DNA from: Chloroflexota bacterium
GTDB lineage: Bacteria; Chloroflexota; Dehalococcoidia; GIF9; UBA5629
Assembly: GCA_037443085.1 (NCBI GenBank)
Contig: JBBIPA010000003.1
Location: 26,534 to 89,500 of the forward strand
Reading direction: 5' to 3'
DNA: 62,967 nt
This document shows, one piece after another, positions 24,477 to 57,098 of the stretch. The position numbers and the translations under genes were made by a program. The notes under the pieces were generated by a model. The model did no database searches. It had not been told where the DNA came from and saw only the letters and a program-made list of their open reading frames with translations. Numbering within the stretch: position 1 is the first letter of the stretch; the number at the start of each line of letters is the position of its first letter.

Positions 24477-24639
24477 TTAAACCCCACCTCCCCATACACC
24501 AAATCCAAAATCCCAAGCACCAAATTACAAATTTAAAAGATAATCACCAGCCATATGAATCTACATCTACACCCTGCAACTAATTAGATCCCTCTGAGGT
24601 ATTGTGCTTTTTTATTTAATCTTTTATGATATACCACAT

Positions 24640-26204
24640 ATGAGACCTTACCACTTTTTCATCTTACTTCTTGTTTTTGCATTATTCGTAAGCTGCACAA
24701 CTGCAGTTCCTCCTAAATTACCTGAACCACCTAAATCTAGCCCAACTCCAGCAAAATTTTCCCTGTCAAATCTCTCTATTAAGCCGACATCTATCCAATC
24801 CGGTGAAATGGTATCTATAAGCATAGATGCAACTAATACAGGTGGAACTGACGGGAATTATACTGTAGTTCTAATGTTAAATGGCGAAAAGGCAGCAGAG
24901 GAAACAATTGCCGTAGCCAAAGGTAATACGAGCACTGTTACGTTCGCGATAATAAAGGATGATATTACTATTTACGACGTGGCTGTGGGCGATTTGAAAG
25001 CCAGTTTTACCACTATGCCACTCACAGGCAATGCCAGCGGGATACATGCGCCAGGGATGGTCAGCTTTGACAATATTATTTCCAATCTCATGAAAGAATG
25101 GAGGATTCCGGGTGGCGCTGTCGCCGTTGCAAAAAACGGACGATTAGTCCTTGCGCGAGGCTATGGCATGACTGACTCGCAGCTTAAAGCACATGTAATG
25201 CCTACATCACTCTTCCGTATCGCTAGTATTTCAAACCCATCACTGCCGCCGCTATTCTCAAATTAGTGGAACAGGGCAAGCTCGATCTCGATGCAAAGGC
25301 TTTCAGTATTCTTAACATTACACAATCCGCCGTCAAGGATCGCAGAATTTATGACATCACAATTCGTAATTTATTACAACACTCTGGCGGATGGGATCGA
25401 GAGAAAAGTTTCGATCCAATGTTTATTTCAAATAGAGCCGCAAGCGAAATAGGTGCACCACAACCAGCAAGTAGTGAAACCATAATACGCTTTATGTTAG
25501 GACAACAGTTGGATTTCGACCCAGGTAGCCGATTTGCATATTCAAATTTTGGTTACTGTATTCTTAGCCGCATAATCGAGAAGGTAACTGGACAAAGCTA
25601 TCAGAATTATGTTAATAATCAAATCTTAATACCATTGGGAATCACGCAAGCACGCATCGGACGCTCTCTAATTGATGAGAGAGTTAAAAATGAAGTTAGA
25701 TACTACGATTTTCCTAGCGCACTTGCAAGTCAATCCGTATTCCCCAATATCTCAGGCTTGGCCCCTACACCATATGGCGGATTTTATCTCGAAGCGATGG
25801 ATTCCCACGGCGGCTGGATTACCTCAGCAATAGATCTTGTGCGCTTCGCAGTTGCTCTTGAAGGCAGTAAATCCCCAAATTTACTGAAACCAGAAACGGC
25901 AAAGACCATGGTGTCTCGTCCACAACCACCCCTATGGGTAGGCACTCCCTATTACTACGGTACAGGTTGGTTAGTACGCCCAGTGTCCAACGATGCCAAT
26001 TGGTGGCATACTGGGTCACTCCCCGGAACTGCTACTATCCTCGTCCGCACTAATAACGGCTTCGTATGGGCGGCACTATTTAACTCTCGCCCCACCAATG
26101 GGGGCAATTTTTTATTGGAAGTGGACAATGCACTCTGGAAAGCAGCTCGCGAGGTTACTGAATGGCCAACACATAACCTTTTTAAGCAATACGGATACAA
26201 ATAA
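24640..26204 (+). pseudogene. Serine hydrolase / class C beta-lactamase-family lipoprotein with an N-terminal CARDB-like domain, disrupted by a 1-nt frameshift at the SxxK motif
   Basis: ORFs 24604-25266 and 25266-26204 join as ...LFRIASIS|KPITAAAILKLVEQGKLDLD if one A is restored at 25233-25235. Lipobox (LFVSC) follows the ATG at 24640. The segment is AT-rich. Confidence 0.8.
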
Positions 26205-26413: not shown

Positions 26414-27196
26414 ATGAAAACCAGAGGTAAAATTCTCATAGCCGACGACGAGACCGAGTTCAAAGCTGAACTGCAGGCGACACTTGAAGGGCAACACTAC
26501 CAGGTAGTCACCGTCGGCAATAAAACGCAGGCACAGGAAATGACACGGCGGGAAAGCCCCGACCTGGTCATTTTAGGCACCCTTGCCCCAAGGGGCGATG
26601 CCTTCCTGTTCCATCAATGGCTAAGACGGAGTCAGCATTTCAGTGAACTTCCCCTTATTGTCATCGACGCCTCACCGGACAAGCAGCTTACCAGGGGATG
26701 GACCAAGGACGAGGGATTAAGGCTTGAAGCCGAAGACTATTTCTCCAAGCCGGTCAACCCCACATCATTGCTCCCCTTTATCGAGAAGCTGCTGGACAAG
26801 GTTACCCTGAAGATCAAAGTGCTCATAGCGGATGACCACGTCGTCGCCAGAGAAGGCATTCGCACCTTGCTCAACCTTCAAAAGGATATAGAAGTGGTAG
26901 GCGAAGCTATTGATGGCAAAGAGGCCGTTGTGAAAACACGCCAGCTTGCCCCTGACATTGTCCTCATGGACATTGTCATGCCCCTAATGGATGGGCTGGA
27001 GGCAACCAGGCAGATATGCCAGGATACCAGAGTGCTCATTCTTTCCCAATACGATGATGAAGATACTATCCTTGCCAGCTATCAGGCAGGTGCTGTCGGC
27101 TTCATACCCAAAAATAGCGCCAGCACGCGTCTGATTAACGATATCAGAACCGCCAGCAAGACGGAGAAGAGTCAACATGCTATCAGTAAGAGCTAG
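26414..27196 (+). CDS. Tandem-receiver protein (REC-REC, no output domain); first REC is a pseudo-receiver
   Basis: REC1 has DLVILGTLAP, with Gly55 (codon 26576-26578) where the phospho-acceptor Asp is expected. REC2 is canonical (VLIADDH...DIVLMDIVMP). Confidence 0.85.
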   Translation: MKTRGKILIADDETEFKAELQATLEGQHYQVVTVGNKTQAQEMTRRESPDLVILGTLAPRGDAFLFHQWLRRSQHFSELPLIVIDASPDKQLTRGWTKDEGLRLEAEDYFSKPVNPTSLLPFIEKLLDKVTLKIKVLIADDHVVAREGIRTLLNLQKDIEVVGEAIDGKEAVVKTRQLAPDIVLMDIVMPLMDGLEATRQICQDTRVLILSQYDDEDTILASYQAGAVGFIPKNSASTRLINDIRTASKTEKSQHAISKS

Positions 27197-28457
27197 GACA
27201 ATGAAAGTAGGGCAGCGCTACAAAATACTCTATGAAATAGCCCATGAGCTTAACTCTGGACTGTCATCAGACCAGGTGCTGTCCACCATTGTAGAAATGC
27301 TGTGCAAAGCAGCAGAAGCCAAAGGATGTTCTCTAATGTTATTGTCTCCAGACCAGAAACAATTGATACACACCGTAGCTTACGGGCTGAGCGACTGGTA
27401 TATGCGCAAGGGGCCTGTGGTGGTGGATAAAAATATCGCCCAGGCACTAGATGGCAAACCGATGGCGGTTTTGGATGCTACCACCGACCCCCGTGTTCAA
27501 TATCGAGAGCAAGCCAGAAAAGAAGGCATCGTATCCATGCTGTCGCTGCCCATCATGCGGAGTGGTACGGTCATCGGCATCATTCGTATTTATACCTCTG
27601 AGCCGCGCAAATTCTCAGCACGCGAAATAGAGTTCTTCGGCGCTATGGCTAACCTGGGTGCCATCGCCCTGGAGAGAGCGGAGAGACACGAGTCAGTAGA
27701 CCGTGACCTCAACCAGTGCCGCATCGAACGCAGCAATCTGGAAGAAGACAAGAAAAAATTCCTGCGATTCGTCAGTATGGCTGCCCATGACCTGAAAGCC
27801 CCCCTCGCCGCCATCCAGAGCTTCCTCAGGGTCATGCTCGATGGCTATGTGGGAGAGCTTAATGAGAAGCAAAGGCATATGATGGAACGGTCTTCGCTGA
27901 GAATCACCGAGCTACTGAAACTCATCAGCGACCTGCTCGATATTCCCCGCATCGAGCAGGGGCAACTGGTACAGGAGATGCAGGATGTCTCTATAGAGAC
28001 GATTATTAATAACTTCGCCGAGGAGGGCATCAGCCTGGCAAAACAAAAGGGATTAACATTCACACTGAACGTCGCTCCCAATCTCCCCACTATCAAAGGC
28101 TCACCACCCAGGCTACAGCAGGTAATCGTCAACCTGGTGAACAATGCCACCGCCTATACCAAAGAGGGCGGGGTAACCATCCGCGCCAGAGAAGCAGACA
28201 ATGAAGTGCTTGTGGAAGTAATAGACACTGGCTGTGGCATTCCATCCGAGGAACTGCCCCGAATATTCGAAGATTTTTTCCGGGGCAGCAACACTGGTGC
28301 CAGAGGTACTGGACTGGGACTTCCCATCGCTAAAAGGATTATTGAGGCTCACGAAGGCAGAATCTGGACTGAAAGCCCCGACCCGGAAACAGGCAAAGGG
28401 AGCAAATTCAGTTTTACCATTCCTGTAAAGGGCAGGGCAGGACAAGCTCCTAGATAG
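27177..28457 (+). CDS. GAF-domain sensor histidine kinase (HisKA + HATPase_c)
   Basis: GAF N-terminus, H-box FVSMAAHDLKAPL, N/G boxes (NLVNNATAY, DTGCGI, GTGLGLPIAKR). An alternative start lies at 27201. Confidence 0.9.
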   Translation: MLSVRARTMKVGQRYKILYEIAHELNSGLSSDQVLSTIVEMLCKAAEAKGCSLMLLSPDQKQLIHTVAYGLSDWYMRKGPVVVDKNIAQALDGKPMAVLDATTDPRVQYREQARKEGIVSMLSLPIMRSGTVIGIIRIYTSEPRKFSAREIEFFGAMANLGAIALERAERHESVDRDLNQCRIERSNLEEDKKKFLRFVSMAAHDLKAPLAAIQSFLRVMLDGYVGELNEKQRHMMERSSLRITELLKLISDLLDIPRIEQGQLVQEMQDVSIETIINNFAEEGISLAKQKGLTFTLNVAPNLPTIKGSPPRLQQVIVNLVNNATAYTKEGGVTIRAREADNEVLVEVIDTGCGIPSEELPRIFEDFFRGSNTGARGTGLGLPIAKRIIEAHEGRIWTESPDPETGKGSKFSFTIPVKGRAGQAPR

Positions 28458-28466
28458 GAGAGAGAA

Positions 28467-28865
28467 ATGGCAGGTAAGAAGATTTTGATAGTTGATGATG
28501 ACCCGGATATCAGGGATATATTGAGCCTGGTGCTTGAAGCTCAGGGATACCAGGTGAGCACCGCCAGTGATGGGCTGGAATTCTTTGTTCGATTGGGCAA
28601 AGACAAGCCTGACCTGCTTATCCTTGACCTCCTCATGCCCAAGATGGATGGATTTGCAGTGTACAAAGAGCTTAGAAATCCCAGGTGGGCAGCCTACCAG
28701 GATATGCCTATCCTGGTACTCACCTCAGTGCGTGAAGAAGCCAGTAAGAGACGCTATGAGTTGGAAACAGGGCAGACCCTGGATGTTGATTGTTACGTAG
28801 AAAAACCAATATCACCAGAAGCGCTGGTGGAAACAGCCAGGAAGCTCCTCAACCAAAAAACATAA
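28467..28865 (+). CDS. Single-domain response regulator (CheY-like)
   Basis: 132 aa with ILIVDDDPD...DLLILDLLMPKMDG...K. Confidence 0.9.
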   Translation: MAGKKILIVDDDPDIRDILSLVLEAQGYQVSTASDGLEFFVRLGKDKPDLLILDLLMPKMDGFAVYKELRNPRWAAYQDMPILVLTSVREEASKRRYELETGQTLDVDCYVEKPISPEALVETARKLLNQKT

Positions 28866-28908
28866 ATGAGCATCGCTATTACAAAAGTCGAAAGGAGGTA
28901 ATAAGAAA

Positions 28909-29298
28909 ATGAAATGTAAACCCAAAATACTGCTTATTGATGATGACCCGGATTTCGTCGAAGCCACCAAACTGGTACTGGAGAGCAAGCCCTACGAAGT
29001 AGTCACCGCCGCCGATGGCAGTGAAGGTATAGCCAAGGCAAGGAAGGAAAAACCTGACCTCATCATCCTTGACATCATTATGCCGGTTAAAAATGGTTTT
29101 AATGCTGCCGAGGAACTTAAGAAAGATGCCGAATTACAGAAAATACCGGTCATCATGCTCACCAGCTTTGGGCAAAAGGTCAGTGAAACCAATCTAAGCC
29201 TTAGCCAGGGAATGATGCTGGACACCGAGGATTATATCGACAAGCCGGTGGAGCCTGAAGAGCTGTTCAAGAGGATAGAAAATCAGCTGAAAAAGTAG
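28909..29298 (+). CDS. Single-domain response regulator (CheY-like)
   Basis: 129 aa with ILLIDDDPD...DLIILDIIMPVKNG. Confidence 0.9.
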   Translation: MKCKPKILLIDDDPDFVEATKLVLESKPYEVVTAADGSEGIAKARKEKPDLIILDIIMPVKNGFNAAEELKKDAELQKIPVIMLTSFGQKVSETNLSLSQGMMLDTEDYIDKPVEPEELFKRIENQLKK

Positions 29299-29802
29299 CT
29301 ATTCGATGCGGGTATCACGACCCACGGGCAGATACCCTTCTTTGCCCGCAAATTTGCCGCGCAAGTCGCGTAACCTGGCACCGATAACGCGTACCAATCC
29401 CTTCATAATCTCATAGCCAAGGGAATGATTGCTATCCATCAAGTCGCTGAGTTCAGCACCGTTTACTATCATCACTGACGAGGGCTTTACGCAGACTGCA
29501 GACAGGGTGAGAGAATGAGGAGACACCAGAGACGACCAGCCAAACACATCTCCCTTGGTTATAGCATCCACCGGGACCTGTGACACCTGCCTGGTACCCT
29601 CATGGTGCACATCGATAACCAACCTCACCTCACCCTCTTCCAGAATATAGAAGTCACTGGCTCTTACATTCTCATGAAAGATAAAGATGCCTTCCTTATA
29701 GGTTTCCCTTCTCCATGAATGGAGTGTCGCTATTTTCTCCAGGTCACAGTCATCCAATCCCACAAACACCTCGCACCGCTTCAATATCGAAACTATGTCC
29801 AT
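29299..29802 (-). CDS. Cyclic nucleotide-binding domain protein (no DNA-binding domain)
   Basis: 167 aa with a cNMP-binding beta-barrel pattern (FIFHENVRASDFYILEEGEVRL...GDVFGWSSL). Its stop abuts the stop of the convergent gene. Confidence 0.8.
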   Translation of the reverse strand: MDIVSILKRCEVFVGLDDCDLEKIATLHSWRRETYKEGIFIFHENVRASDFYILEEGEVRLVIDVHHEGTRQVSQVPVDAITKGDVFGWSSLVSPHSLTLSAVCVKPSSVMIVNGAELSDLMDSNHSLGYEIMKGLVRVIGARLRDLRGKFAGKEGYLPVGRDTRIE

Positions 29803-30056: not shown

Positions 30057-32723
30057 TTGGAAATGATTACCATCACTCTCAACGGGCGTGAGGTAAGCGG
30101 ACAGGCTGGCATGACTATACTGGCCCTAGCACGAGAATCAGGTGTTGATATTCCCACTCTGTGCCATGACCCCAACCTGCCTTCGGTTGGCGCTTGCCGT
30201 ATTTGCATAGTGGAAGATGAGCGCACCGGGGCATTAATGGCATCCTGCGTCACCCCTATTGCACCGGGAATGGTGATCAACACGCAATCCCCCAAGGTAA
30301 AAGAGCGACGCAGCATCTCGCTGAAACTGATGCTGGCCAGCCATCCCGACACCTGCATGGTCTGTGATAAAGGCAACTGCTGCGACCTGCGCAGAATCGC
30401 CTCCGAGATGGGCATCGGCTTCATCGACTTCCAGAGAATACCCCAATCAGACGTCATCGAAGAGGTCAACCCCTTTATCCAGCGCGACCTGAGCAAATGC
30501 ATTCTTTGTGCCAAATGCATCAGAGCCGACCAGGAGCTAGTAGTGGTGGGGGCTATTGACTACCTTCATCGCGGCTTCATCTCCAAACCGTCAACGCTTA
30601 ACGACCAGCCACTGGAAAAATCCGAGTGCAACTTCTGTGGCACCTGTGTCGCCATGTGTCCCACCGGCGCCCTGTCCGAAAAAGAAAAAATATATCGAGG
30701 AACTACCAGCAAAACCGTCCGCTCCATTTGCCCCTATTGCGGCTGTGGTTGTGGCATCTTACTGGAAATCAAAGACGACTACCTCATACGGAGCATGCCC
30801 GATAACAACAATCCTCTCAACCGCGGTACCCTGTGCGTCAGAGGTAGCTACGGCTACGATTTTGTGCACAGCCGGGAAAGGCTCACCAATCCCCTGCTCA
30901 AGGCAGATGGGGAATTTAAGGCGGTAAGTTGGGAAGAAGCGCTGGGTTTCACAGCCACAGAATTGAAACGAATAAAAGAATCCCACGGAGCTCATAACCT
31001 GGCTGTCCTAGGCTCATCCAAATGCACCAACGAGGACAATTACCTGCTGCAAAAGTTCGCCCGATGCGCGCTGGGTACCAATAATATCGACAACGGCAGC
31101 AGATTGTACAGCTCTGATAATTATGTAAACCTGGGCGAAGCTACTGGCTACTGGGGCACTACTGGCTCCCTTGATAACCTGGAGAAATCCCAGGTAATTC
31201 TGGTAATCGGCGCCAACCCGTCTGCCTCAGCACCACTGGTGGAATATGCTATCAAGCGTGCCGTCAAATACAAGGACGCCAAGCTCATTCTAATAGACCC
31301 GATGCCCACCGGTCTCTCGGCATTTGTCCATCTCTGGCTGCACCACAAGGCAGGCACTGATACGGTGCTGCTCAACGGTTTAGCCAGGATAATAATAGAT
31401 AAAAACCTTTTGGATAGAGAACACATCTCAGCAAAAAAGGCTGACCTCGAAGAATTCGCTTCCAGCCTGAAAAAGTATACCGTCAAGCATGTTGAAAGGA
31501 TTAGCGGTGTCCCTGCTGAAGAGCTTCAGCAAGCTGCCAGGCTCATCGCCACAGCCGGGCAAATCTCTATAGTCCACGGCAATGGCATCGCCCAGCAGCT
31601 TAACAGCACAAGCTGCTCTACCGCCATGGTTAATTTAGCAACGCTCATAGGCGATATTGGAGATAAGGTAAATATCTATGCCCTGCATAGAGATAGCAAC
31701 GGTCAGGGCTCCTGTGATATGGGCTCCATACCCCATTTCCTGCCGGGCTACCAGTCTCCAGATGACACTGAAACCAGAAGTAAATTTGAATCCCGTTGGG
31801 GATACCGCCTGCCTGACAGGAAAGGCTTGACCGCCCTGGAAATGGTACAGCAGGTCAGGGAAGGCAGTGTCAGGGCAATGTACATTGTGGGTGAGAACCC
31901 CGCTCTGAGCTTTCCTCAGTCATCTCTGGTGAAACAAACCCTGGAATCACTGGAGTTCCTGGTTGTACAGGACATGTTCCTCACCGAAACAGCCAGGCTG
32001 GCTAAAGTAGTGCTGCCAGCATCATCTTTCGCCGAAAAAAACGGCTCCTTCACCAATTTCGAGGGAAGAATACAAAAGCTGAATAGGGCACTGCCGCCAT
32101 TGGGCAACAGCCTGCCCGACTGGCAAATCATATCGAAGCTATCAACCTCTATGGGCTACGGAATGTCCTATGCCTCACCGGATGACATCATGAACGAAAT
32201 CAAGGAACTGGTGCCGCTGTACCGCGACGCCCAGCGTACCTCGCCGGCACCCGATAGCAGTCAGCTCGCCAGCAGACAAAACACTGATAAAAAAGCTGCA
32301 AGCAAATCGGCAGCCTTCCACATTACGGAATACACACCTTTGCCCGAAAAGCAGCCGCAGGGATATCCTTTCACCCTGTTCGCTGGCAGTACGCTGTACC
32401 ACTTCGGCGGCGGTACCAGAAGCTCCCGAGCCTCACGCCTCAAGAAATTCCTGCCCGAGGCATATATAGAGATCAACCCGTCAGATGCTGAAAGCATCAG
32501 CATTAAGAACGGCGATAGAGTCAAGGTCTCCTCGCCTGCTGGCGAAGTGGCCGCTGTGGCCAGAATCAGCGACATGGTCAGTCAAGGGATGGTTTTCATG
32601 CCCATATCCTTCCCCAGCAGCCCGGTAACAACGCTATTCGACCTTGTCCTGGAACCGCAATCAAAAACCCCGGCAATGAAAACATGCCCAGTAAAACTAG
32701 AAAGGATTGACAGCCATGGCTGA
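30057..32723 (+). CDS. NuoG/FdhA-like Fe-S molybdopterin-oxidoreductase-family subunit, cytoplasmic, lacking the FDH Sec/Cys-His pair
   Basis: 888 aa with 2Fe-2S (CHDPN..CRIC), HPDTCMVCDKGNCC, two 4Fe-4S ferredoxin motifs and CPYCGCGCG of the MopB domain. IDNGSRLYSSD occupies the place of IDxxARxU/CH in FDH. No Tat signal. TTG at 30057 follows AGGGAGG; an alternative ATG is at 30063. Confidence 0.85.
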   Translation: MEMITITLNGREVSGQAGMTILALARESGVDIPTLCHDPNLPSVGACRICIVEDERTGALMASCVTPIAPGMVINTQSPKVKERRSISLKLMLASHPDTCMVCDKGNCCDLRRIASEMGIGFIDFQRIPQSDVIEEVNPFIQRDLSKCILCAKCIRADQELVVVGAIDYLHRGFISKPSTLNDQPLEKSECNFCGTCVAMCPTGALSEKEKIYRGTTSKTVRSICPYCGCGCGILLEIKDDYLIRSMPDNNNPLNRGTLCVRGSYGYDFVHSRERLTNPLLKADGEFKAVSWEEALGFTATELKRIKESHGAHNLAVLGSSKCTNEDNYLLQKFARCALGTNNIDNGSRLYSSDNYVNLGEATGYWGTTGSLDNLEKSQVILVIGANPSASAPLVEYAIKRAVKYKDAKLILIDPMPTGLSAFVHLWLHHKAGTDTVLLNGLARIIIDKNLLDREHISAKKADLEEFASSLKKYTVKHVERISGVPAEELQQAARLIATAGQISIVHGNGIAQQLNSTSCSTAMVNLATLIGDIGDKVNIYALHRDSNGQGSCDMGSIPHFLPGYQSPDDTETRSKFESRWGYRLPDRKGLTALEMVQQVREGSVRAMYIVGENPALSFPQSSLVKQTLESLEFLVVQDMFLTETARLAKVVLPASSFAEKNGSFTNFEGRIQKLNRALPPLGNSLPDWQIISKLSTSMGYGMSYASPDDIMNEIKELVPLYRDAQRTSPAPDSSQLASRQNTDKKAASKSAAFHITEYTPLPEKQPQGYPFTLFAGSTLYHFGGGTRSSRASRLKKFLPEAYIEINPSDAESISIKNGDRVKVSSPAGEVAAVARISDMVSQGMVFMPISFPSSPVTTLFDLVLEPQSKTPAMKTCPVKLERIDSHG

Positions 32724-33222
32724 ACCAAAACAGCTACCAACCCCTGATATGGCACGAGTACATGAGCTTATCGAAAGCTCCCGTGGTGAACGATGGGCAT
32801 TAATCCCGTTGCTTCAAAAAATACAGGAGGCGATTGGCTACATACCTCCCCAGTCTGTTCAGCCGATTGCCCGGACTACGGGTCTATTCCCGTCACAGGT
32901 GCAGGGAGTAATCTCTTTTTATACACAACTGTATACCAAGCCACAGGGCAAGAACATGGTCAGAGTATGCCGCGGCACCGCCTGTCACGTGCGCGGTGGC
33001 AGGACCATACTCAAGCTGGTGAAGCAGTATCTCAGCGTTGAGGAGGGCGAAACCACTCCTGACTACGAGTACACCCTGGAGACAGTAGCCTGCATCGGCG
33101 TTTGTGCCCTGGCGCCCAACATGGTTATCGGCAACACTACTTACGGTCACTTAAATCCCAAGAAAATAGCACAGTTATTCGGTAGCAGACAGTTGTACGG
33201 CGGTAAGAAGAACGAGGATTAA
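32716..33222 (+). CDS. NuoE/HydC-type [2Fe-2S] thioredoxin-like subunit
   Basis: VCRGTACHVRG...ACIGVCALAP motif pattern. The ATG overlaps the upstream stop (ATGGCTGA). Confidence 0.88.
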   Translation: MAEPKQLPTPDMARVHELIESSRGERWALIPLLQKIQEAIGYIPPQSVQPIARTTGLFPSQVQGVISFYTQLYTKPQGKNMVRVCRGTACHVRGGRTILKLVKQYLSVEEGETTPDYEYTLETVACIGVCALAPNMVIGNTTYGHLNPKKIAQLFGSRQLYGGKKNED

Positions 33223-33223
33223 T

Positions 33224-36200
33224 ATGCCAGAACAGAAGATTATTCTTGTTTGCCAGGGCACAGGATGTATTTCCAGCGGATCTGACATTGTTTATGCCGC
33301 ACTAAAAGCAGCGGTAACCCAACACAAACTCAAAAACGTCAGTGTGGACTTCACTGGTTGCCATGGCTTCTGTGAGCAGGGACCAAATGTTGTAATTGAA
33401 CCCGGAGGTATTTTCTATACCCATGTCCAAGCTGAAGATGCGCCAGACATCATCACTTCACATCTGCGCGACGGAAAACATGTAGAACGACTCTTCTATG
33501 TTGACCCGTCAACTGGGAAAGCCATACCCCAGTACAATGAGATCAACTTTTACCAAAAACAGCAGCGTGTTATCCTCCGTAACTGTGGTCACATCAATCC
33601 TGAAAACATCGATGACTATATCAGCAGGGGCGGCTATCAAGCATTGAAAAAAGCTCTCCTTAAAATGAAACCTGAAGAGGTTATCGAGGAAATCAAAGGA
33701 TCCGGCCTTCGCGGTCGCGGCGGTGCCGGTTTCCCCACTGGACGTAAGTGGGAATTCTGTCGAAATTCTCCAGGTGACATCAAATACGTCATCTGCAACG
33801 CCGATGAGGGCGACCCCGGCGCCTTCATGGACCGTTCTATTCTGGAAGCCGATCCTCACGCCGTTATCGAAGGCTTAACTATCGCCGGCTATGCTATAGG
33901 GGCCGCTGAAGGATACATATATGTCCGCGCTGAATACCCACTGGCAGTCAAACGATTCTATGCAGCCCTGGAACAAGCCAGTACCAAAGGTTTCCTCGGC
34001 AATAACATCCTCAATTCAGGCGTTAATTTCATTATTCACGTGAAAGAGGGAGCTGGTGCCTTTGTCTGTGGCGAGGAAACTGCCCTCATGGCTTCTATCG
34101 AAGGCAAACGCGGCATGCCCCGCCCTCGCCCACCTTTCCCGGCACAATTCGGCCTCGATGGCAAGCCCAGCAACATTAATAACGTCAAAACTATGGCCAC
34201 CGTCCCTATCATTATCGATAAAGGAGCCGAATGGTTTTCCAAGATAGGCACTGAGAAAAGCCCGGGCACTGCTGTCTTTGCCCTCACCGGCAAAATCGCC
34301 AATAGCGGACTGGTGGAAGTGCCCATGGGCACACCACTATCCAATATCATCTTTGATATCGGTGGTGGCATCCCCCGTGGCAGAAGCTTCAAGGCAGTGC
34401 AGACCGGCGGTCCCTCGGGCGGCTGTATCCCAGCGCGGTTCATTGACACACCGGTAGAGTACGACACGCTCGCCAAGCTTGGCTCCATCATGGGGTCAGG
34501 CGGCATGGTGGTACTTGATGAAGCCACCTGCATGGTTGAGGTGGCACGCTACTTTCTCAGCTTTACCCAGACAGAGTCCTGTGGCAAATGTGTCCCCTGC
34601 CGCCTGGGCACCAGGCAGATGCTGGAGATACTGACCAGAATCACGCAGGGCAGAGGAGAAACCAGTGACCTTGATACTCTGCTTGCCATAGCCAGGACAG
34701 TCAAAGATTGCTCGCTCTGTGGCCTGGGACAAACCTGTCCCAATCCTGTGCTCACCACCCTGAACTATTTCCGTGACGAATATGAAGCACATATTAAGGA
34801 CAAAAAGTGCCCGGCGGCTGTATGCGACGCACTGATGATATCTCCCTGCCAGCACACCTGCCCTGTGGGCATTAACATTCCCAAATACGTTGCCCACATC
34901 GCCGCCGGAGAATATCTGGAGTCCATCCAAACCATCAGAGACAGAAATCCTTTCGCCGCAGTCTGCGGACGTATCTGCCACCATCCCTGCGAGGGCAGGT
35001 GCCGCCGTGGTGAACTGGATGCCCCCGTCGCCATTCGCTCGCTCAAGCGCTTCTCTGCCGACTGGTATGCTGAGCATTTTACTGAACTACCACCACCCGA
35101 ACCCTTCCCCAGAACCAAACCACAGAACATAGCCGTGGTCGGTGCTGGTCCTACCGGCTTAAGCTGCGCCTACTACCTGGCACAGCTGGGTTACGGTGTC
35201 ACCGTGTTTGAAGCCCTGCCGGTGGGTGGAGGCATGTTATCCGTGGCCCTGCCAGAATTTCGTCTGCCCCAGAAAATAATCCAGGAAGACATTGACTACA
35301 TCACTAAACGCGGCGTGAAAATAAAATACGACACACCTATTAACGTCAATCTCACTGTAGAAGACCTGAAGAAAGATGGTTTTATCGCAGTCTTCATTGC
35401 CGCTGGCGCGCAGAGAAGCCAGCGTTTAGGCATACCCGGCGAGGTGGAAGACCTTGAAGGTTTCTACTATGGACTCAGGTTCCTCAGAGATATCAAGGTC
35501 GGCAAAACTGTTAAGGTCGGCCACAAAGTAGCGGTCATCGGCGGTGGCAACGTAGCGCTCGATGCAGCGCGCACCGCCTTACGCCTCGGCGCCGACGATG
35601 TCGAAATCTTCTACCGTCGCTCCAGGGAAGAAATGCCGGTCACTGAGATCGAATATGACGAGGCGGTCGCCGAAGGCATAGACATCAATTTCCTGGTCAG
35701 TCCCACTCGCATTGTAAGCGATAAGTGGAAGGTTACCGGATTACAATGTGTCCGCATGCAGCTAGGCGAGATGGATGAAAGTGGACGACGTCGCCCTGTG
35801 GCCATCCCTGGCTCCGATTTTCTTGCCTCAGCAGATACTGTTATTGCTGCAGTAGGCCAAGCACCAGACCTGTCCTTCCTGCCTCCAGATAGCGCCCTGG
35901 AGCGCACCCGCTGGGAAACGTTGAAGGTCGACTCCCATACTCTGTCAACCAATATCCCCGGCGTCTTTGCTGGTGGCGATTTCGTCACTGGACCCGGGAT
36001 GGTAATCCATGCGATCGCTGCGGGCAAGAGAGGCGCCCTCGCCATAGATAAATACCTCAGAGGCGATACCACCTGGATAGAAATGTACGACATTAAGACA
36101 GAGGTTATCTTACCAGCCGCGGCCAAGACGGAAGAAGAAGAATGGAAGCAGCAAGGTCGTGTAGAAGTACCCACGCTTCCCACTGAACAAAGAAAACGCA

Positions 36201-36286
36201 GCTTCGAAGAAATCGAGCTTAGCTTCGGAGAAGATATTGCCATACAGGAAGCCAAACGATGCTTGAGATGCGACCTCGAGAAATAA
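33224..36286 (+). CDS. NuoF-like NADH/FMN/Fe-S subunit fused to a GltD/NfnB-like NADPH flavoprotein domain
   Basis: 1020 aa. N-terminal 2Fe-2S (CQGTGC..CHGFCEQGP), GRGGAGFPTGRKWEF, ADEGDPGAF, ESCGKCVPCRLG, then CGRICHHPCEGRCRRG, VVGAGPTGLSCAYYL and VIGGGNVALDAA. Confidence 0.88.
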   Translation: MPEQKIILVCQGTGCISSGSDIVYAALKAAVTQHKLKNVSVDFTGCHGFCEQGPNVVIEPGGIFYTHVQAEDAPDIITSHLRDGKHVERLFYVDPSTGKAIPQYNEINFYQKQQRVILRNCGHINPENIDDYISRGGYQALKKALLKMKPEEVIEEIKGSGLRGRGGAGFPTGRKWEFCRNSPGDIKYVICNADEGDPGAFMDRSILEADPHAVIEGLTIAGYAIGAAEGYIYVRAEYPLAVKRFYAALEQASTKGFLGNNILNSGVNFIIHVKEGAGAFVCGEETALMASIEGKRGMPRPRPPFPAQFGLDGKPSNINNVKTMATVPIIIDKGAEWFSKIGTEKSPGTAVFALTGKIANSGLVEVPMGTPLSNIIFDIGGGIPRGRSFKAVQTGGPSGGCIPARFIDTPVEYDTLAKLGSIMGSGGMVVLDEATCMVEVARYFLSFTQTESCGKCVPCRLGTRQMLEILTRITQGRGETSDLDTLLAIARTVKDCSLCGLGQTCPNPVLTTLNYFRDEYEAHIKDKKCPAAVCDALMISPCQHTCPVGINIPKYVAHIAAGEYLESIQTIRDRNPFAAVCGRICHHPCEGRCRRGELDAPVAIRSLKRFSADWYAEHFTELPPPEPFPRTKPQNIAVVGAGPTGLSCAYYLAQLGYGVTVFEALPVGGGMLSVALPEFRLPQKIIQEDIDYITKRGVKIKYDTPINVNLTVEDLKKDGFIAVFIAAGAQRSQRLGIPGEVEDLEGFYYGLRFLRDIKVGKTVKVGHKVAVIGGGNVALDAARTALRLGADDVEIFYRRSREEMPVTEIEYDEAVAEGIDINFLVSPTRIVSDKWKVTGLQCVRMQLGEMDESGRRRPVAIPGSDFLASADTVIAAVGQAPDLSFLPPDSALERTRWETLKVDSHTLSTNIPGVFAGGDFVTGPGMVIHAIAAGKRGALAIDKYLRGDTTWIEMYDIKTEVILPAAAKTEEEEWKQQGRVEVPTLPTEQRKRSFEEIELSFGEDIAIQEAKRCLRCDLEK

Positions 36287-36340
36287 ATCAACAGCCCGCA
36301 GCGGGGATTGAAAGGGGCAAAGCCCATTTTACAACTGACT

Positions 36341-36393
36341 TCATCCCCTCTCTCCTTGATAGGGAGAGAGGGGCAAGGGGTGAGAGGTTGTTA
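36341..36393. repeat. Palindromic REP-like element (CCCCTCTCTCC-ttgata-GGGAGAGAGGGG + GCAAGGGGTGAGAGGTT), copy upstream of metV
   Basis: Perfect 11-bp stem at 36345-36355/36362-36372. A related degenerate copy lies at 38002-38050. Confidence 0.75.
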
Positions 36394-36425
36394 CAAACCT
36401 TACTGGCTGCCTAAGGAGGACTTTG

Positions 36426-37070
36426 ATGAAATCTATTACCAAGCAGAAACCATTCGATGAAATAATGAAGCTCTTGGAAGGCTGTGACCGGGTCTTCATT
36501 ACAGGCTGCGGCACCTGTACTACTATGACCAAAACTGGCGGCATTGACCAGGTTCTGGAAATGAAGCAGTGGCTGCAGGATACCGGCAAGCTGGTAACCG
36601 GCTGGGTGGTGATTCCCACCAGTTGCGACGATATGACCGAGACGCACCTCAAGGAGAGCAGTGCCGCCATCCAGAATACCAACTGCATCCTGGTCATGTC
36701 CTGTGCGCTGGGATTATTTAAGATAAACTCCTACATAAGCAAGCGCGCCGTGCCCGCAGTGGATACCTTATTCATCGGCGTTGAGGATGTGCCCGGCAAC
36801 TTCTACGAAGTCTGTGCCCAGTGCGGCCAGTGTGTCCTGGGCTTTACTGCAGGTATTTGCCCCATCACCTTCTGCCATAAAAGCCTGCTTAATGGCCCCT
36901 GCGGCGGCACCAACAAGGGCAAATGCGAGGTAGATAAAGACAAGGACTGTGCCTGGACGCTTATCTATAATCGACTCAAGGAGCAGAACAGGCTGGATTT
37001 GATGCGCCAGCACCTGCCGCCCAAGAACTACCAAGCAGCGCCCAAACCGCGAAAGATTAAAATCGCTTGA
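36426..37070 (+). CDS. metV: Methylene-tetrahydrofolate reductase small subunit MetV (MTHFR_C family)
   Basis: CGTCTTM..., CAQCGQCVL, CHKSLLNGPCGGTNKGKCEVD hallmark. ATG at 36426 lies 6 nt after GGAGG. Confidence 0.85.
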   Translation: MKSITKQKPFDEIMKLLEGCDRVFITGCGTCTTMTKTGGIDQVLEMKQWLQDTGKLVTGWVVIPTSCDDMTETHLKESSAAIQNTNCILVMSCALGLFKINSYISKRAVPAVDTLFIGVEDVPGNFYEVCAQCGQCVLGFTAGICPITFCHKSLLNGPCGGTNKGKCEVDKDKDCAWTLIYNRLKEQNRLDLMRQHLPPKNYQAAPKPRKIKIA

Positions 37071-37087
37071 GCGAAGGAGATACCGCC

Positions 37088-37975
37088 ATGACAATGCGCT
37101 TTAAAGAAGCTCTTAACTCCAGCAAATTCGTCATCACCAGCGAGATCGGCCCACCCAAGGGCACTAACCTGGAGAAGATGTTCCACCACATCGAGCTGCT
37201 CAAGGATAAAGTGGATGGACTAAATGTGACCGACCACCAGAGCTCAGTGATGCGCTTCCCCTCCATAGGCGGCTGCCTGGCTATTAGAGAACGCGGCGGT
37301 GAGCCTATACTGCAAATGACCTGCCGCGACCGCAACCGGCTGGCGCTCCAGGCCGAGCTACTTCTCGCCTATACCCGCGGTATTACCAATGTTCTCTGCC
37401 TCACTGGCGATGCCGTGCCGGTGGGCGACCATAAAGAAGCTAAAGGCGTCTTCGACCTGGATTCACTGCAATTGCTGGAAACCGTCCGCCTCCTGGAATC
37501 GGGCAAAGACCTCGGCAGCAACGACCTCGATGGCGCCGTGAAATTCTGTGCCGGGGCTACCGTTACCCCCGAAGCCAACCCCATCGAACCACAGCTGATT
37601 AAATTCGAGAAGAAAGTGAAGGCTGGAGCCGACTTCTTCCAGACTCAGGCAATTTACGACCTGGACAACTTCGCCAGGTTCATGAAACATGCCCGACAGT
37701 TTCCTGTCAAAATACTCGCCGGCATTGTGCTGCTGGTATCGGCGCGGATGGCAAAATACATGACCGAAAACGTGCCCGGCATTTTTGTGCCCCAGAAGCT
37801 GATTGACGAGCTTGCCGCTGCCCCCAAGGGCGAAGCGCTTAACAAGGGCATCGAAATCGCCGGCCGCATGATTGCCACCCTGAAAAAAGAGGGCTTATGC
37901 GATGGTGTCCACATCATGGCTATCGGCAAAGAAGAGGTCGTCCCCGACATCCTCAAAGCCGCCGGCATTTCCTAA
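37088..37975 (+). CDS. metF: 5,10-methylenetetrahydrofolate reductase MetF
   Basis: FVITSEIGPPKG, LNVTDHQSS, MTCRDRNR, LCLTGD, FFQTQAIYD are the MTHFR TIM-barrel pattern. ATG at 37088 follows AGGAG. Confidence 0.9.
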   Translation: MTMRFKEALNSSKFVITSEIGPPKGTNLEKMFHHIELLKDKVDGLNVTDHQSSVMRFPSIGGCLAIRERGGEPILQMTCRDRNRLALQAELLLAYTRGITNVLCLTGDAVPVGDHKEAKGVFDLDSLQLLETVRLLESGKDLGSNDLDGAVKFCAGATVTPEANPIEPQLIKFEKKVKAGADFFQTQAIYDLDNFARFMKHARQFPVKILAGIVLLVSARMAKYMTENVPGIFVPQKLIDELAAAPKGEALNKGIEIAGRMIATLKKEGLCDGVHIMAIGKEEVVPDILKAAGIS

Positions 37976-40974: not shown

Positions 40975-41060
40975 TGGTGCCGAGGGAGGGACTCGAACCC
41001 ACACTTCCTCGCGGAAAGCGGATTTTAAGTCCGCCGCGTCTACCATTCCGCCACCTCGGC
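40975..41060 (-). tRNA. tRNA-Leu (anticodon TAA), CCA encoded
   Basis: Manual cloverleaf with acceptor GCCGAGG/CCTCGGC, anticodon arm GCGGA-CTTAAAA-TCCGC, long variable arm and GGTTCGAGTCC T-loop. Confidence 0.92.
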
Positions 41061-41086
41061 ATATCAATCATACTGGAATGGAAAAC

Positions 41087-41162
41087 TGGAGGCGGCGAGC
41101 GGATTTGAACCGCTGCATAGGGGTTTTGCAGACCCCCGCCTTAACCACTTGGCTACGCCGCC
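41087..41162 (-). tRNA. tRNA-Cys (anticodon GCA), CCA encoded
   Basis: Acceptor GGCGGCG/CGCCGCC, anticodon arm GGGGT-CTGCAAA-ACCCC, GGTTCAAATCC T-loop. Confidence 0.92.
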
Positions 41163-41173
41163 GTGGTACTCAA

Positions 41174-41248
41174 TGGAGCGGAAGACGAGATTCGAACTCG
41201 CGACCTCCTCCTTGGCAAGGAGGCATTCTACCGCTGAACTACTTCCGC
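41174..41248 (-). tRNA. tRNA-Gly (anticodon GCC), CCA encoded
   Basis: Acceptor GCGGAAG/CTTCCGC, anticodon arm CCTCC-TTGCCAA-GGAGG, AGTTCGAATCT T-loop. Confidence 0.92.
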
Positions 41249-41300
41249 TCAGCTCTACGAAACCCCCACCCCCCTGCACCATCAGCCTTCAACAAGCTTA

Positions 41301-41388
41301 TGGTGCCGAGGAGGAGATTTGAACTCCTACGAGCTTACGCTCACCACCCCCTCAAGATGGCGTGTCTACCAGATTCCACCACCTCGGC
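41301..41388 (-). tRNA. tRNA-Leu (anticodon GAG), CCA encoded
   Basis: Acceptor GCCGAGG/CCTCGGC, anticodon arm CCATC-TTGAGGG-GGTGG, long variable arm. Confidence 0.9.
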
Positions 41389-41390
41389 AC

Positions 41391-41466
41391 TGGCAGGGGT
41401 GGCAGGATTTGAACCCGCGACCTACGGTTTTGGAGACCGTTGCTCTCCCAACTGAGCTACACCCCT
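41391..41466 (-). tRNA. tRNA-Trp (anticodon CCA), CCA encoded
   Basis: Acceptor AGGGGTG/CACCCCT, anticodon loop CTCCAAA, GGTTCAAATCC T-loop. Confidence 0.92.
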
Positions 41467-41497
41467 AACAATATGACTGTATCTGTTAATTTTCAAG

Positions 41498-41571
41498 TAC
41501 CCCTGGGGCGATTCGAACGCCCGACACGCGGTTTAGGAAACCGCTGCTCTATCCATCTGAGCTACAGGGGC
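41498..41571 (-). tRNA. tRNA-Arg (anticodon CCT), 3' CCA not encoded
   Basis: Acceptor GCCCCTG/CAGGGGT (one G-U pair), anticodon arm GCGGT-TTCCTAA-ACCGC, GCGTTCGAATCGC T-arm. Confidence 0.9.
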
Positions 41572-50857: not shown

Positions 50858-50931
50858 TGGGGATTAGTCTAGCGGTAGGACAGCGGACTCTGGATCCGTG
50901 AGGCCAGGTTCGAATCCTGGATCCCCAGCCA
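50858..50931 (+). tRNA. tRNA-Gln (anticodon CTG), CCA encoded
   Basis: Acceptor TGGGGAT/ATCCCCA, anticodon loop CTCTGGA, GGTTCGAATCC T-loop. Confidence 0.92.
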
Positions 50932-56820: not shown

Positions 56821-56866
56821 AAAACAAAAAACCAAGAGCCCAACTAGGTAATGCTAACTCTTGGTT
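56821..56866 (-). terminator. Riboswitch expression-platform terminator
   Basis: Minus strand reads AACCAAGAG-N19-CUCUUGGUU followed by UUUUUGUUUU, directly upstream of the thiC RBS. Confidence 0.8.
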
Positions 56867-56870
56867 CGAT

Positions 56871-56974
56871 GCCGCTTCCCTACGCTCGAATTACCAAGAT
56901 CAGGTTCCCAGGGTTCTCTGTGATTACAGAGTCTCAGCCTCAGGTACTAAACTTGTCTGAGCACCCCTAGCGGC
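56871..56974 (-). promoter_or_regulatory. TPP (THI-box) riboswitch aptamer
   Basis: Minus strand reads GCCGC-UAGGGGUGC...GGCUGAGA...ACCCUGGGAACCUGAUCUUGGUAAUUCGAGCGUAGGGAA-GCGGC, which carries the conserved THI-box elements and a P1 helix GCCGC/GCGGC. Confidence 0.93.
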
Positions 56975-57098
56975 GAGCAAAATATATTCGTTTGACTTAC
57001 TATAGCATAAGAGAGTAGGGAAACACAAGAAAATGCAAGACAACTTCCATAGTCCCATTGCCGTATGCTACAATTTTTCTGTACTATGGAGTGTATCT

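Follow-up and report, generated by a model that had tools for sequence, protein, structure and literature searches.

A NuoE, NuoF-GltD and FdhA-like trio linked to metVF: a candidate NAD(P)H input module for methylene-tetrahydrofolate reductase in uncultured Dehalococcoidia

Introduction

By which route do electrons reach a methylene-tetrahydrofolate reductase that has no pyridine-nucleotide site of its own? The question is raised by a stretch of 62,967 nucleotides from a Chloroflexota bacterium of the Dehalococcoidia (GenBank assembly GCA_037443085.1, contig JBBIPA010000003.1, positions 26,534 to 89,500), here called the window, in which five co-directional genes at 30057..37975 encode a formate dehydrogenase-like protein (g1), a NuoE-type protein (g2), a NuoF-GltD fusion (g3) and the two subunits, MetV and MetF, of a methylene-tetrahydrofolate reductase (MTHFR). 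An earlier reading of these letters, referred to below as the original prediction, had proposed that g1, g2 and g3 (the trio) form an Stn/Sfr-like electron-input module for MetFV. The identity of the electron donor of MetFV, and the question whether energy is conserved at this strongly exergonic step, are long-standing problems of Wood-Ljungdahl bioenergetics.

The premise of the proposal, that MetFV relies on lineage-specific input modules such as RnfC2 or Hdr-MvhD, is confirmed in the literature: MetF and MetV of acetogens lack an NAD(P)H site, and the recruitment of RnfC2 defines the type III enzyme and that of HdrCBA-MvhD the type IV enzyme (PMC8760232). RnfC2 is a MetV domain fused to an RnfC-like NADH-binding subunit, a type II MTHFR with ferredoxin as the donor results in a negative ATP balance, and the second acceptor of the type IV enzyme is unknown (PMC8760232). 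No description of an MTHFR with the composition encoded in the window was found in the literature searched. The comparative analysis reported here favours, with a probability of about 0.55, the reading that the five proteins constitute a fifth kind of MetFV methylene-tetrahydrofolate (methylene-THF) reductase, in which the trio would be a physical NAD(P)H input module, possibly coupled to ferredoxin. By this route, which is probably undescribed, electrons would enter one of the central reactions of anaerobic CO2 fixation.

Results

Conserved linkage of the trio and metVF

All five genes were borne out by an open reading frame (ORF) check, and their starts coincide with those in public gene calls for the same contig (GCA_034432715.1, DAOUAX010000113.1). 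On the forward strand, g1 (30057..32723, 888 aa) starts with TTG 10 nt 3' of GGGAGG; the ATG of g2 (32716..33222) overlaps the g1 stop as ATGGCTGA, the longest g2 ORF beginning at TTG 32707; g3 (33224..36286, 1020 aa) begins 1 nt past g2; metV (36426..37070) begins with ATG after a spacer of 139 nt (36287..36425); and metF (37088..37975), also with an ATG start, follows 17 nt past metV.

Searches with Pfam and NCBIfam profiles recovered every domain that had been named from the sequence, and the translations contain all of the motifs singled out at that time (GRGGAGFPTGRKWEF, ESCGKCVPCRLG, CGRICHHPCEGRCRRG and CHKSLLNGPCGG). In g1, Fer2_4, NADH-G_4Fe-4S_3, Fer4_Nqo3, Molybdop_Fe4S4 and the cofactor-binding domains Molybdopterin (PF00384) and Molydop_binding (PF01568) were found. 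The thioredoxin-like 2Fe-2S subunit g2, of the NuoE/HydC/BfuC type, matches 2Fe-2S_thioredx (PF01257, E = 4e-44), has the cysteine pairs C-x4-C and C-x3-C and scores above the cut-off of the NCBIfam NuoE model NF005722, while g3 combines an N-terminal 2Fe-2S_thioredx domain with Complex1_51K, NADH_4Fe-4S, Fer4_20 and Pyr_redox_2. MetV, the Fe-S/zinc subunit, matches PF12225 (MTHFR_C/DUF5981, E = 5e-36), and a search of PDB gave no solved structure for any of its homologues. MetF, the flavin-containing catalytic subunit, matches PF02219 (E = 1e-42) and reaches 81 bits against TIGR00676, the cut-off of which is 294, and at most 58 bits against type I MTHFR structures; judged by these scores, MetF does not belong to the NAD(P)H-dependent type I enzymes, and MetVF has the features of the MetFV group (types II-IV).

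Relatives were compared as loci around g3, with one genome per GTDB species, and 80 loci (numbered with the prefix L) were returned. At least 65% identity in g3 was found in 54 of these, all from metagenome-assembled genomes of Dehalococcoidales/Dehalococcoidia except one labelled Bacillota, and the closest g3 homologues are labelled Chloroflexi or Dehalococcoidia. Wherever enough downstream sequence is available, metV-metF lies directly 3' of g3 (39/39 loci), and g1 and g2 lie 5' of g3 in all 41 loci with enough upstream sequence; the linkage on which the original prediction had staked its case is conserved in relatives. One apparent exception without metVF, L012, was rejected as such, its g1 and g3 being cut by scaffold gaps of 100 N. 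Orthologues of g1 diverge down to 49% identity, yet the gene order is kept. Dozens of Dehalococcoidales species, all of them uncultured, make up the clade; they come from groundwater, lakes and peat.

No larger Wood-Ljungdahl cluster surrounds the operon. In the window no RnfC2 or Hdr/MvhD gene occurs within 10 kb, and in the loci of the clade no Wood-Ljungdahl, Hdr or RnfC genes were found, response regulators and histidine kinases being the only conserved flanking genes. RnfC2 or HdrCBA with MvhD beside metVF, the mark of types III and IV, is therefore absent, and MetFV is the only candidate partner and substrate-converting unit in the operon of the window.

Recurrent pairing of g3 with metV

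The pairing extends beyond the closest relatives. The g3 of L087 is 64% identical to that of the window and stands in the same five-gene order; its FdhA is also dead, with other substitutions (Trp-Gly for Cys-His; Gly-Lys). A second arrangement, variant B (L085b, L086 and L088), has the order of a 225-aa HoxU-like protein, nuoE, g3, metV, a histidine kinase, metF and response regulators, with 16 nt between g3 and metV; the sequence of L086 stops within metV. The 225-aa connector aligns with the N-terminus of g1, and the pterin domain is absent. In every paired arrangement (the A clade defined below, L087, L089, L091, L095 and variant B) metV is directly 3' of g3.

In L085 the variant B set is part of a co-directional supercluster of 14 kb (L085:1-14001), together with a g3 paralogue and a live Cys-containing formate dehydrogenase (FDH); a sensor kinase gene lies between metV and metF, and two response regulators close the set. 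The nearest earlier remark concerns a marine Chloroflexi single-cell genome, DscP3, for which a further metV/metF pair, with two-component genes on its flanks, was described (PMC5736913); this set resembles variant B, and no link with NuoEF-GltD was noted there.

A rough tree of 49 g3 sequences was built by neighbour joining with 100 bootstraps. Support is 100% both for the A clade (the window, L087, L089, L091, L095 and others) and for the B clade; an exclusive clade of A and B has 0%, and B joins L082, which is linked to a live FDH, at 98%. The MetF proteins of A and B share 40% identity, as against 63% between the MetF of B and that of the Hdr-linked L046, and L089 combines an A-clade g3 with a MetF of the B/Hdr type. 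Since the A and B clades are not sisters and their MetF types differ, the pairing of g3 with metV does not go back to one inherited event; as read from this tree, the two genes became neighbours, for the first time or anew, on at least two or three occasions.

The active site of g1

The best PDB matches of g1 are true FDHs, namely Rhodobacter FdsA (536 bits) and Bacillus YjgC (532 bits), as against only about 260 bits for StnC/NfnA; its score against the FDH model TIGR01591 is 618, under the cut-off of 666. The Fe-S clusters recognizable from motifs are a 2Fe-2S cluster (C36/47/50/64), a His-ligated 4Fe-4S cluster (H96, C100/103/109), two ferredoxin-type 4Fe-4S clusters and the 4Fe-4S cluster of the pterin domain (C225/228/232/260). 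The residues that characterize an FDH (Sec or Cys, His and Arg) are absent. In a residue alignment with 6tg9_A/9wxb_B as references, the CARVCH of Rhodobacter capsulatus FdsA corresponds to GSRLYS in g1, with Tyr351 for Cys386 and Ser352 for His387, and the LRGQNNVQG of FdsA corresponds to LHRDSNGQG, with His544 for Arg587. The "catalytically atypical" molybdopterin scaffold that had been suspected is thus real, all three catalytic residues having been replaced. The N-terminus bears no twin-arginine, in agreement with the reported absence of a twin-arginine translocation signal.

When the window protein was aligned with 40 orthologues (41 sequences), the listed ligand cysteines and His96 were invariant and Tyr351 was 95% conserved, while positions 352 and 544 varied within the clade; mean column conservation is 0.75 in the pterin domain versus 0.86-0.89 in the Fe-S domains. 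By these features g1 is an FdhA-derived, catalytically inactivated Fe-S/molybdopterin-fold subunit, placed in the role of BfuA/NuoG.

In the first ferredoxin-type motif (CILCAKCIRAD), residue 158 (around nt 30528-30530) is Asp in 32 and Cys in 9 of the 41 aligned sequences, and this cluster may be Asp-ligated or 3Fe-4S. Asp158 was considered as a special trait of g1 and dropped, the live FDH of L046 also having Asp in place of the fourth Cys.

Architecture of g3

The N-terminal half of g3 (residues 1 to about 540) is a NuoF of the BfuB/HydB type, with an N-terminal 2Fe-2S cluster, a flavin mononucleotide (FMN)/NADH site and a 4Fe-4S cluster. Its Complex1_51K fold is one that NuoF has in common with RnfC, and RnfC2 likewise bears an FMN/NADH fold of the Complex1_51K type. 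The best PDB match of this half is 7t2r_B, the HydB of the NiFe hydrogenase of Acetomicrobium mobile (776 bits), and NfnB and StnB also match. The C-terminal half (about 540-1020) is a GltD module of the NfnA/StnC type, with two 4Fe-4S clusters, a flavin adenine dinucleotide (FAD), an NADPH site (GGGNVA...YRRS) and a C-terminal RCLRC; its best match is residues 102-567 of 9bov_A, the NfnA of Caldicellulosiruptor saccharolyticus (418 bits), including the closing RCLxC. Two GxGxxG folds had been reported for g3; the second in fact reads GGGNVA, that is, GxGxxA followed by YRRS, and is of the NADP(H) type.

Across the family, C10/15/46/50 and C453/456/459/499 of the NuoF part are invariant, as are, past this part, H523/C529/C534 followed by C542/546/581/585/589/593 and C1013/1016, of which the last eight cysteines suffice for the two GltD 4Fe-4S clusters. 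A ferredoxin-like domain with two CxxCxxCxxxCP motifs (B3/B4) is absent from g3; in its place, the chain passes from H523/C529/C534 straight into the Fe-S domain of GltD. In Nfn-Bfu enzymes the ferredoxin-like B3/B4 domain of BfuB is the site of ferredoxin reduction, and in Stn/NfnABC the GltD module feeds the cluster chain of BfuA (PMC12018979). With B3/B4 absent and GltD in its place, the trio has the parts of Stn/NfnABC but not the wiring. Counted from conserved ligand motifs, the trio holds about ten Fe-S clusters, and its FMN/NADH and FAD/NADPH motifs are intact.

Other partners of the NuoE and NuoF-GltD core

More distant fused g3 proteins (51-57% identity) are encoded with live FDHs. 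These partners retain either Sec (in-frame TGA)-His and Arg (L046, L055, L083, L100, L103 and L111) or Cys-His and Arg (L056, L082, L084, L085a and L109). In L046 (Ca. Geothermocultor), with the order acsD, hdrA-like, metV, metF, hdrBC-like, cooC, acsE, nuoE, g3 and fdhA, the trio is a live Sec-FDH that closes a Wood-Ljungdahl cluster, and the metVF there has an Hdr partner; L046 was therefore not counted as separate evidence that the trio and MetFV form a complex.

A second protein search and a metagenome scan brought out other lineages, which combine the core with the small and large subunits of NiFe hydrogenase through a truncated BfuA (L051, L053, L119, L120, L134, L135 and L141, in part from a classification by markers), with FeFe HydA (L102, verified with Pfam; L108, L116, L133 and L142, judged by size and similarity alone), with a HoxU-like connector plus a Glu_synthase-domain protein of 526 aa (L093, verified with Pfam, the same pattern being seen in L094, L097, L105 and L140) or with Hdr-like genes (L099, L107 and L121). 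With such a variety of partners across lineages, the NuoE and NuoF-GltD core is apparently an NAD(P)H module of the plug-in kind, and a widespread one.

Two of these arrangements may deserve attention in their own right. The operons L053:3584-10769 (Atribacterota) and L051:2535-10369 (Anaerolineae) are NiFe-HydABCSL-like with a BfuB that carries the GltD fusion, so that this putatively bifurcating NiFe hydrogenase would have one more NADPH site. In L093:10303-13650, NuoE, NuoF-GltD, a 229-aa HoxU-like Fe-S protein, the 526-aa PF01645 protein (glutamate-synthase FMN domain) and an NrpR-type nitrogen regulator are encoded in this order, and the set could be an unusual NuoEF-linked enzyme similar to glutamate synthase.

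The spacer between g3 and metV

A hairpin with a perfect 13-bp stem (36345-36373; -23.5 kcal/mol; fold z-score of the spacer -3.3) lies between g3 and metV, and a strong Shine-Dalgarno sequence, AAGGAGG, precedes the metV ATG. The hairpin had been described as a repetitive extragenic palindromic (REP) element; the structure is real, whereas the label was dropped, since the window has a single copy of the sequence and the first 80 related loci have none. No U-tract follows the hairpin, a consensus scan of the gap gave no promoter- or terminator-like site, and an Rfam search gave no match in the operon; a terminator or promoter in the gap was rejected on the empty scan and the missing U-tract.

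In relatives, the length of the spacer ranges from 10 to 170 nt, with a median of 46 nt; usually it is 10-63 nt, too little to accommodate both a terminator and a promoter. The long spacers of relatives hold unrelated palindromic insertions without U-tracts; in L019, L021, L029, L058, L018 and L020 the palindromes are related (e.g. GTCATTGCGAG...CTCGCAATGAC or TCATTCCCGCG.AAGCGGGAATCC) and look like small insertions inside the operon that are similar to REP elements or miniature inverted-repeat transposable elements. In the favoured reading, as in the rival one of two co-transcribed enzymes, the five genes form one operon.

Regulatory neighbours and other features of the window

Upstream of g1, a double-receiver response regulator, a GAF histidine kinase and two single-domain response regulators were identified with Pfam on the forward strand within 26414..29802, together with a cyclic nucleotide monophosphate (cNMP)-binding protein on the minus strand (29299-29802). 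Response-regulator and kinase families are found 5' of g1 in about 24-30 related loci, and the operons of L085, L087 and L088 likewise come with two-component genes, L087 having a sigma-54 activator system instead of the two-component cluster of the window type. The conserved two-component cluster and the cNMP-binding neighbour suggest that the operon is under dedicated regulation.

The flanks of the operon are unrelated to C1 metabolism, with an AHSA1-family gene and a TPR gene downstream (Pfam). Elsewhere in the window, two abutting ORFs of 220 and 312 aa (24604-26204) cover profile positions 1-56 and 69-315 of PF00144 (beta-lactamase/transpeptidase-like), as would be expected if a single gene had been split or had suffered a frameshift. 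The minus strand carries a cluster of six tRNA genes (Leu, Cys, Gly, Leu, Trp and Arg) at 40975-41571 and a thiamine pyrophosphate riboswitch at 56860-56978, and the forward strand a lone tRNA-Gln at 50858-50931.

Discussion

Proposed electron flow

The idea of an Stn/Sfr-like module for MTHFR gains from the conserved and recurrent linkage and from the dead molybdenum site, and has to be amended in one respect, the arrangement of the fusion in Stn being different. The trio would be a Bfu/Nfn-related unit derived from a pyridine-nucleotide-linked FDH, in which g2 and the N-terminal half of g3 would provide the NuoE/NuoF flavoprotein core (FMN, NADH site, 2Fe-2S and 4Fe-4S clusters), while the GltD/NfnB-type module of the C-terminal half would sit where other Bfu enzymes bear their ferredoxin-reducing domain. 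The former FdhA, g1, would have kept its chain of five clusters and would act as a wire and a scaffold, the part played by BfuA in NiFe-HydABCSL, leaving MetV (Fe-S) and MetF (flavin) as the sole remaining substrate-converting site. Electrons would flow from NADH and/or NADPH to the flavins and, through the Fe-S chain, to MetV, the flavin of MetF and methylene-THF, and in the reverse direction for the oxidation of methyl groups.

The midpoint potential of methylene-THF is about -200 mV and that of NAD(P)H about -320 mV, so that bifurcation from NAD(P)H would be permitted. The geometry would also permit low-potential coupling, in which 2 NAD(P)H would react with CH2-THF and either oxidized ferredoxin or NADP+. 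NAD(P)H would then be oxidized at the flavin-cluster site of NuoF, with the high-potential electron passing through the dead FdhA wire to MetV/MetF and the low-potential electron, more speculatively, reaching ferredoxin or NADP+ by way of NuoE and the clusters of GltD. That the five proteins are a single electron-bifurcating (or confurcating) methylene-THF reductase in this sense is rather unlikely; if true, it would be the long-postulated, never demonstrated energy-conserving MTHFR.

A bifurcating enzyme of this kind would also represent a new Bfu sub-architecture, with GltD in place of the ferredoxin-like domain, that also drives FDH, NiFe and FeFe hydrogenases and GltB-like partners across phyla. 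The locus illustrates how evolution may retool an enzyme, with an FDH deprived of its active site, or, in one lineage, of the whole pterin domain, and with the Fe-S/flavin chassis of the former FDH now encoded beside a different catalytic unit. The unit is compact and soluble, comprises five genes and might lend itself to heterologous expression.

Alternative explanations

Several observations weigh against a physical complex and would fit two separate, co-transcribed enzymes serving one pathway, a permuted NfnABC/Stn-like bifurcating transhydrogenase and a type II MetVF, which is an appreciable possibility, though a less than even one. In this case the trio would reversibly couple NADH, reduced ferredoxin and NADP+ and would balance the pools that feed a ferredoxin-dependent MetVF. 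The inventory of the trio, with NuoE, NuoF, GltD and an inert NuoG-like pterin fold, is that of Stn/NfnABC; it holds every part of such a transhydrogenase and could be complete without MetFV. Type II MetFV, which needs no further subunits, is active alone with reduced ferredoxin in vitro (PMC8760232). In Sporomusa ovata, metVF is immediately followed by the stnABC genes, and Stn is nevertheless purified as a heterotrimer of its own (PMC7483475), so adjacency alone is no proof of a complex, and the presence of a live-FDH trio and an Hdr-linked metVF in the single Wood-Ljungdahl cluster of L046 implies that clustering by pathway can bring the genes into proximity. Finally, L129, L130 and L131 encode NuoE, g3 and a 241-aa HoxU-like protein among unrelated genes (for LpxB, a peptidase M1, an amylase-like protein and an outer-membrane barrel), and L128 and L096 encode NuoE and g3 alone, with no connector; since such stand-alone cores exist, the trio could be a self-sufficient enzyme. 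Against these points stand the missing B3/B4 domain with GltD in its place, which makes the wiring of Stn/NfnABC impossible here; the strict adjacency of g3 and metV, which recurs in independent lineages with different MetF types and connectors and exceeds the usual clustering of pathway genes; and the location of the operon outside any larger Wood-Ljungdahl cluster.

The stand-alone cores derive from soil and peat metagenomes (coordinates L129:7099-11903 and L130:7462-11916) and are candidates for a minimal, undescribed Nfn-like transhydrogenase. Their discovery in the metagenome scan, which was aimed at connector-only cores lacking metVF, also led to the rejection, as a rule, of the notion that a connector without a catalytic site always accompanies metVF.

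It is improbable that a non-canonical pocket (e.g. with Tyr) keeps g1 active as a molybdo- or tungsto-enzyme, the trio then being an FDH or another oxidoreductase of the methyl branch beside metVF. Such a function would be in keeping with the close match of full-length g1 to genuine FDHs (536 bits for FdsA; 618 versus 666 for TIGR01591), with the purifying selection on the pterin domain (mean column conservation of 0.75) and with the 95% conservation of Tyr351. It is contradicted by the replacement of the catalytic Cys/Sec, His and Arg and the variation of positions 352 and 544 in the clade, by the Trp-Gly of L087 in place of Cys-His, by variant B, which has no pterin domain and is still linked to metVF, and by the live relatives, which strictly keep Sec/Cys-His and Arg. 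Very improbable, and disfavoured, is a meaningless adjacency kept by vertical descent in one clade as a historical accident: most of the 39/39 count does come from one monophyletic clade, but the synteny holds while g1 falls to 49% identity, a g3 clade that is not the sister of the first shows the pairing again, there with another type of MetF, and the spacers are too short for independent transcription.

Comparison with known systems

The favoured reading, a MetFV reductase with the trio as its NAD(P)H input module, would place the system beside types III (Acetobacterium woodii) and IV (Moorella thermoacetica), with which it shares a MetFV core and an adjacent flavin/Fe-S module supplying an NADH site. 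Unlike in these types, the module consists of NuoE, NuoF-GltD and an inactivated FdhA, with no RnfC2, Hdr or MvhD, and has two nucleotide sites (an NADH-type FMN site and an NADPH-type FAD site) and about ten additional predicted Fe-S clusters. The pairing of an FdhA-type with a GltD-type protein resembles that in Geobacter SfrAB, in which SfrA is likewise not known to have the catalytic Sec/Cys, and in the NADPH-FDH of Moorella thermoacetica (FdhA with the GltD-like beta subunit 'SfrB2'). Unlike the trio, both of these enzymes have two subunits, lack NuoE/NuoF and are not linked to MetVF, and the NADPH-dependent FDH of Moorella thermoacetica is a live Sec-containing enzyme (PMC13040438).

With Stn/NfnABC (Sporomusa ovata, Caldicellulosiruptor saccharolyticus and Thermococcus sibiricus) the trio has in common a NuoE-like protein, a NuoF of the BfuB type, an NADPH flavoprotein of the GltD/NfnB type and a NuoG-like protein with an inert pterin fold, devoid of catalytic residues, and, as in Sporomusa ovata, the position next to metVF. 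The NuoF-GltD fusion had been taken as a mark of Stn, which is wrong: StnC is the GltD-NuoG fusion and StnB a plain NuoF (PMC7483475). GltD is attached here to the C-terminus of BfuB and not inserted in the NuoG-like BfuA, so that g1 has no GltD part; the B3/B4 domain is absent, g1 is far nearer to live FDHs than to StnC/NfnA, and the operon runs into metVF.

Of the constituents of Bfu enzymes, BfuC, BfuA and a BfuB with its FMN/NADH site, 4Fe-4S cluster and N-terminal 2Fe-2S cluster are all present, and only B3/B4 is absent. The 2022 survey of the Bfu family selected BfuB by an architecture that includes the ferredoxin-type 4Fe-4S domain and excluded metagenomic data, and it contains no mention of a GltD fusion or THF (PMC9304861); a survey of this design would have missed the NuoE and NuoF-GltD core, g3 lacking that domain. 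A functional parallel to the proposed complex would be NiFe-HydABCSL of Acetomicrobium mobile, a type 2/3 Bfu enzyme, in which an inert BfuA likewise links the BfuBC core to separate catalytic subunits, with the differences that MetV and MetF would here replace the small and large subunits of the hydrogenase and that BfuB bears GltD.

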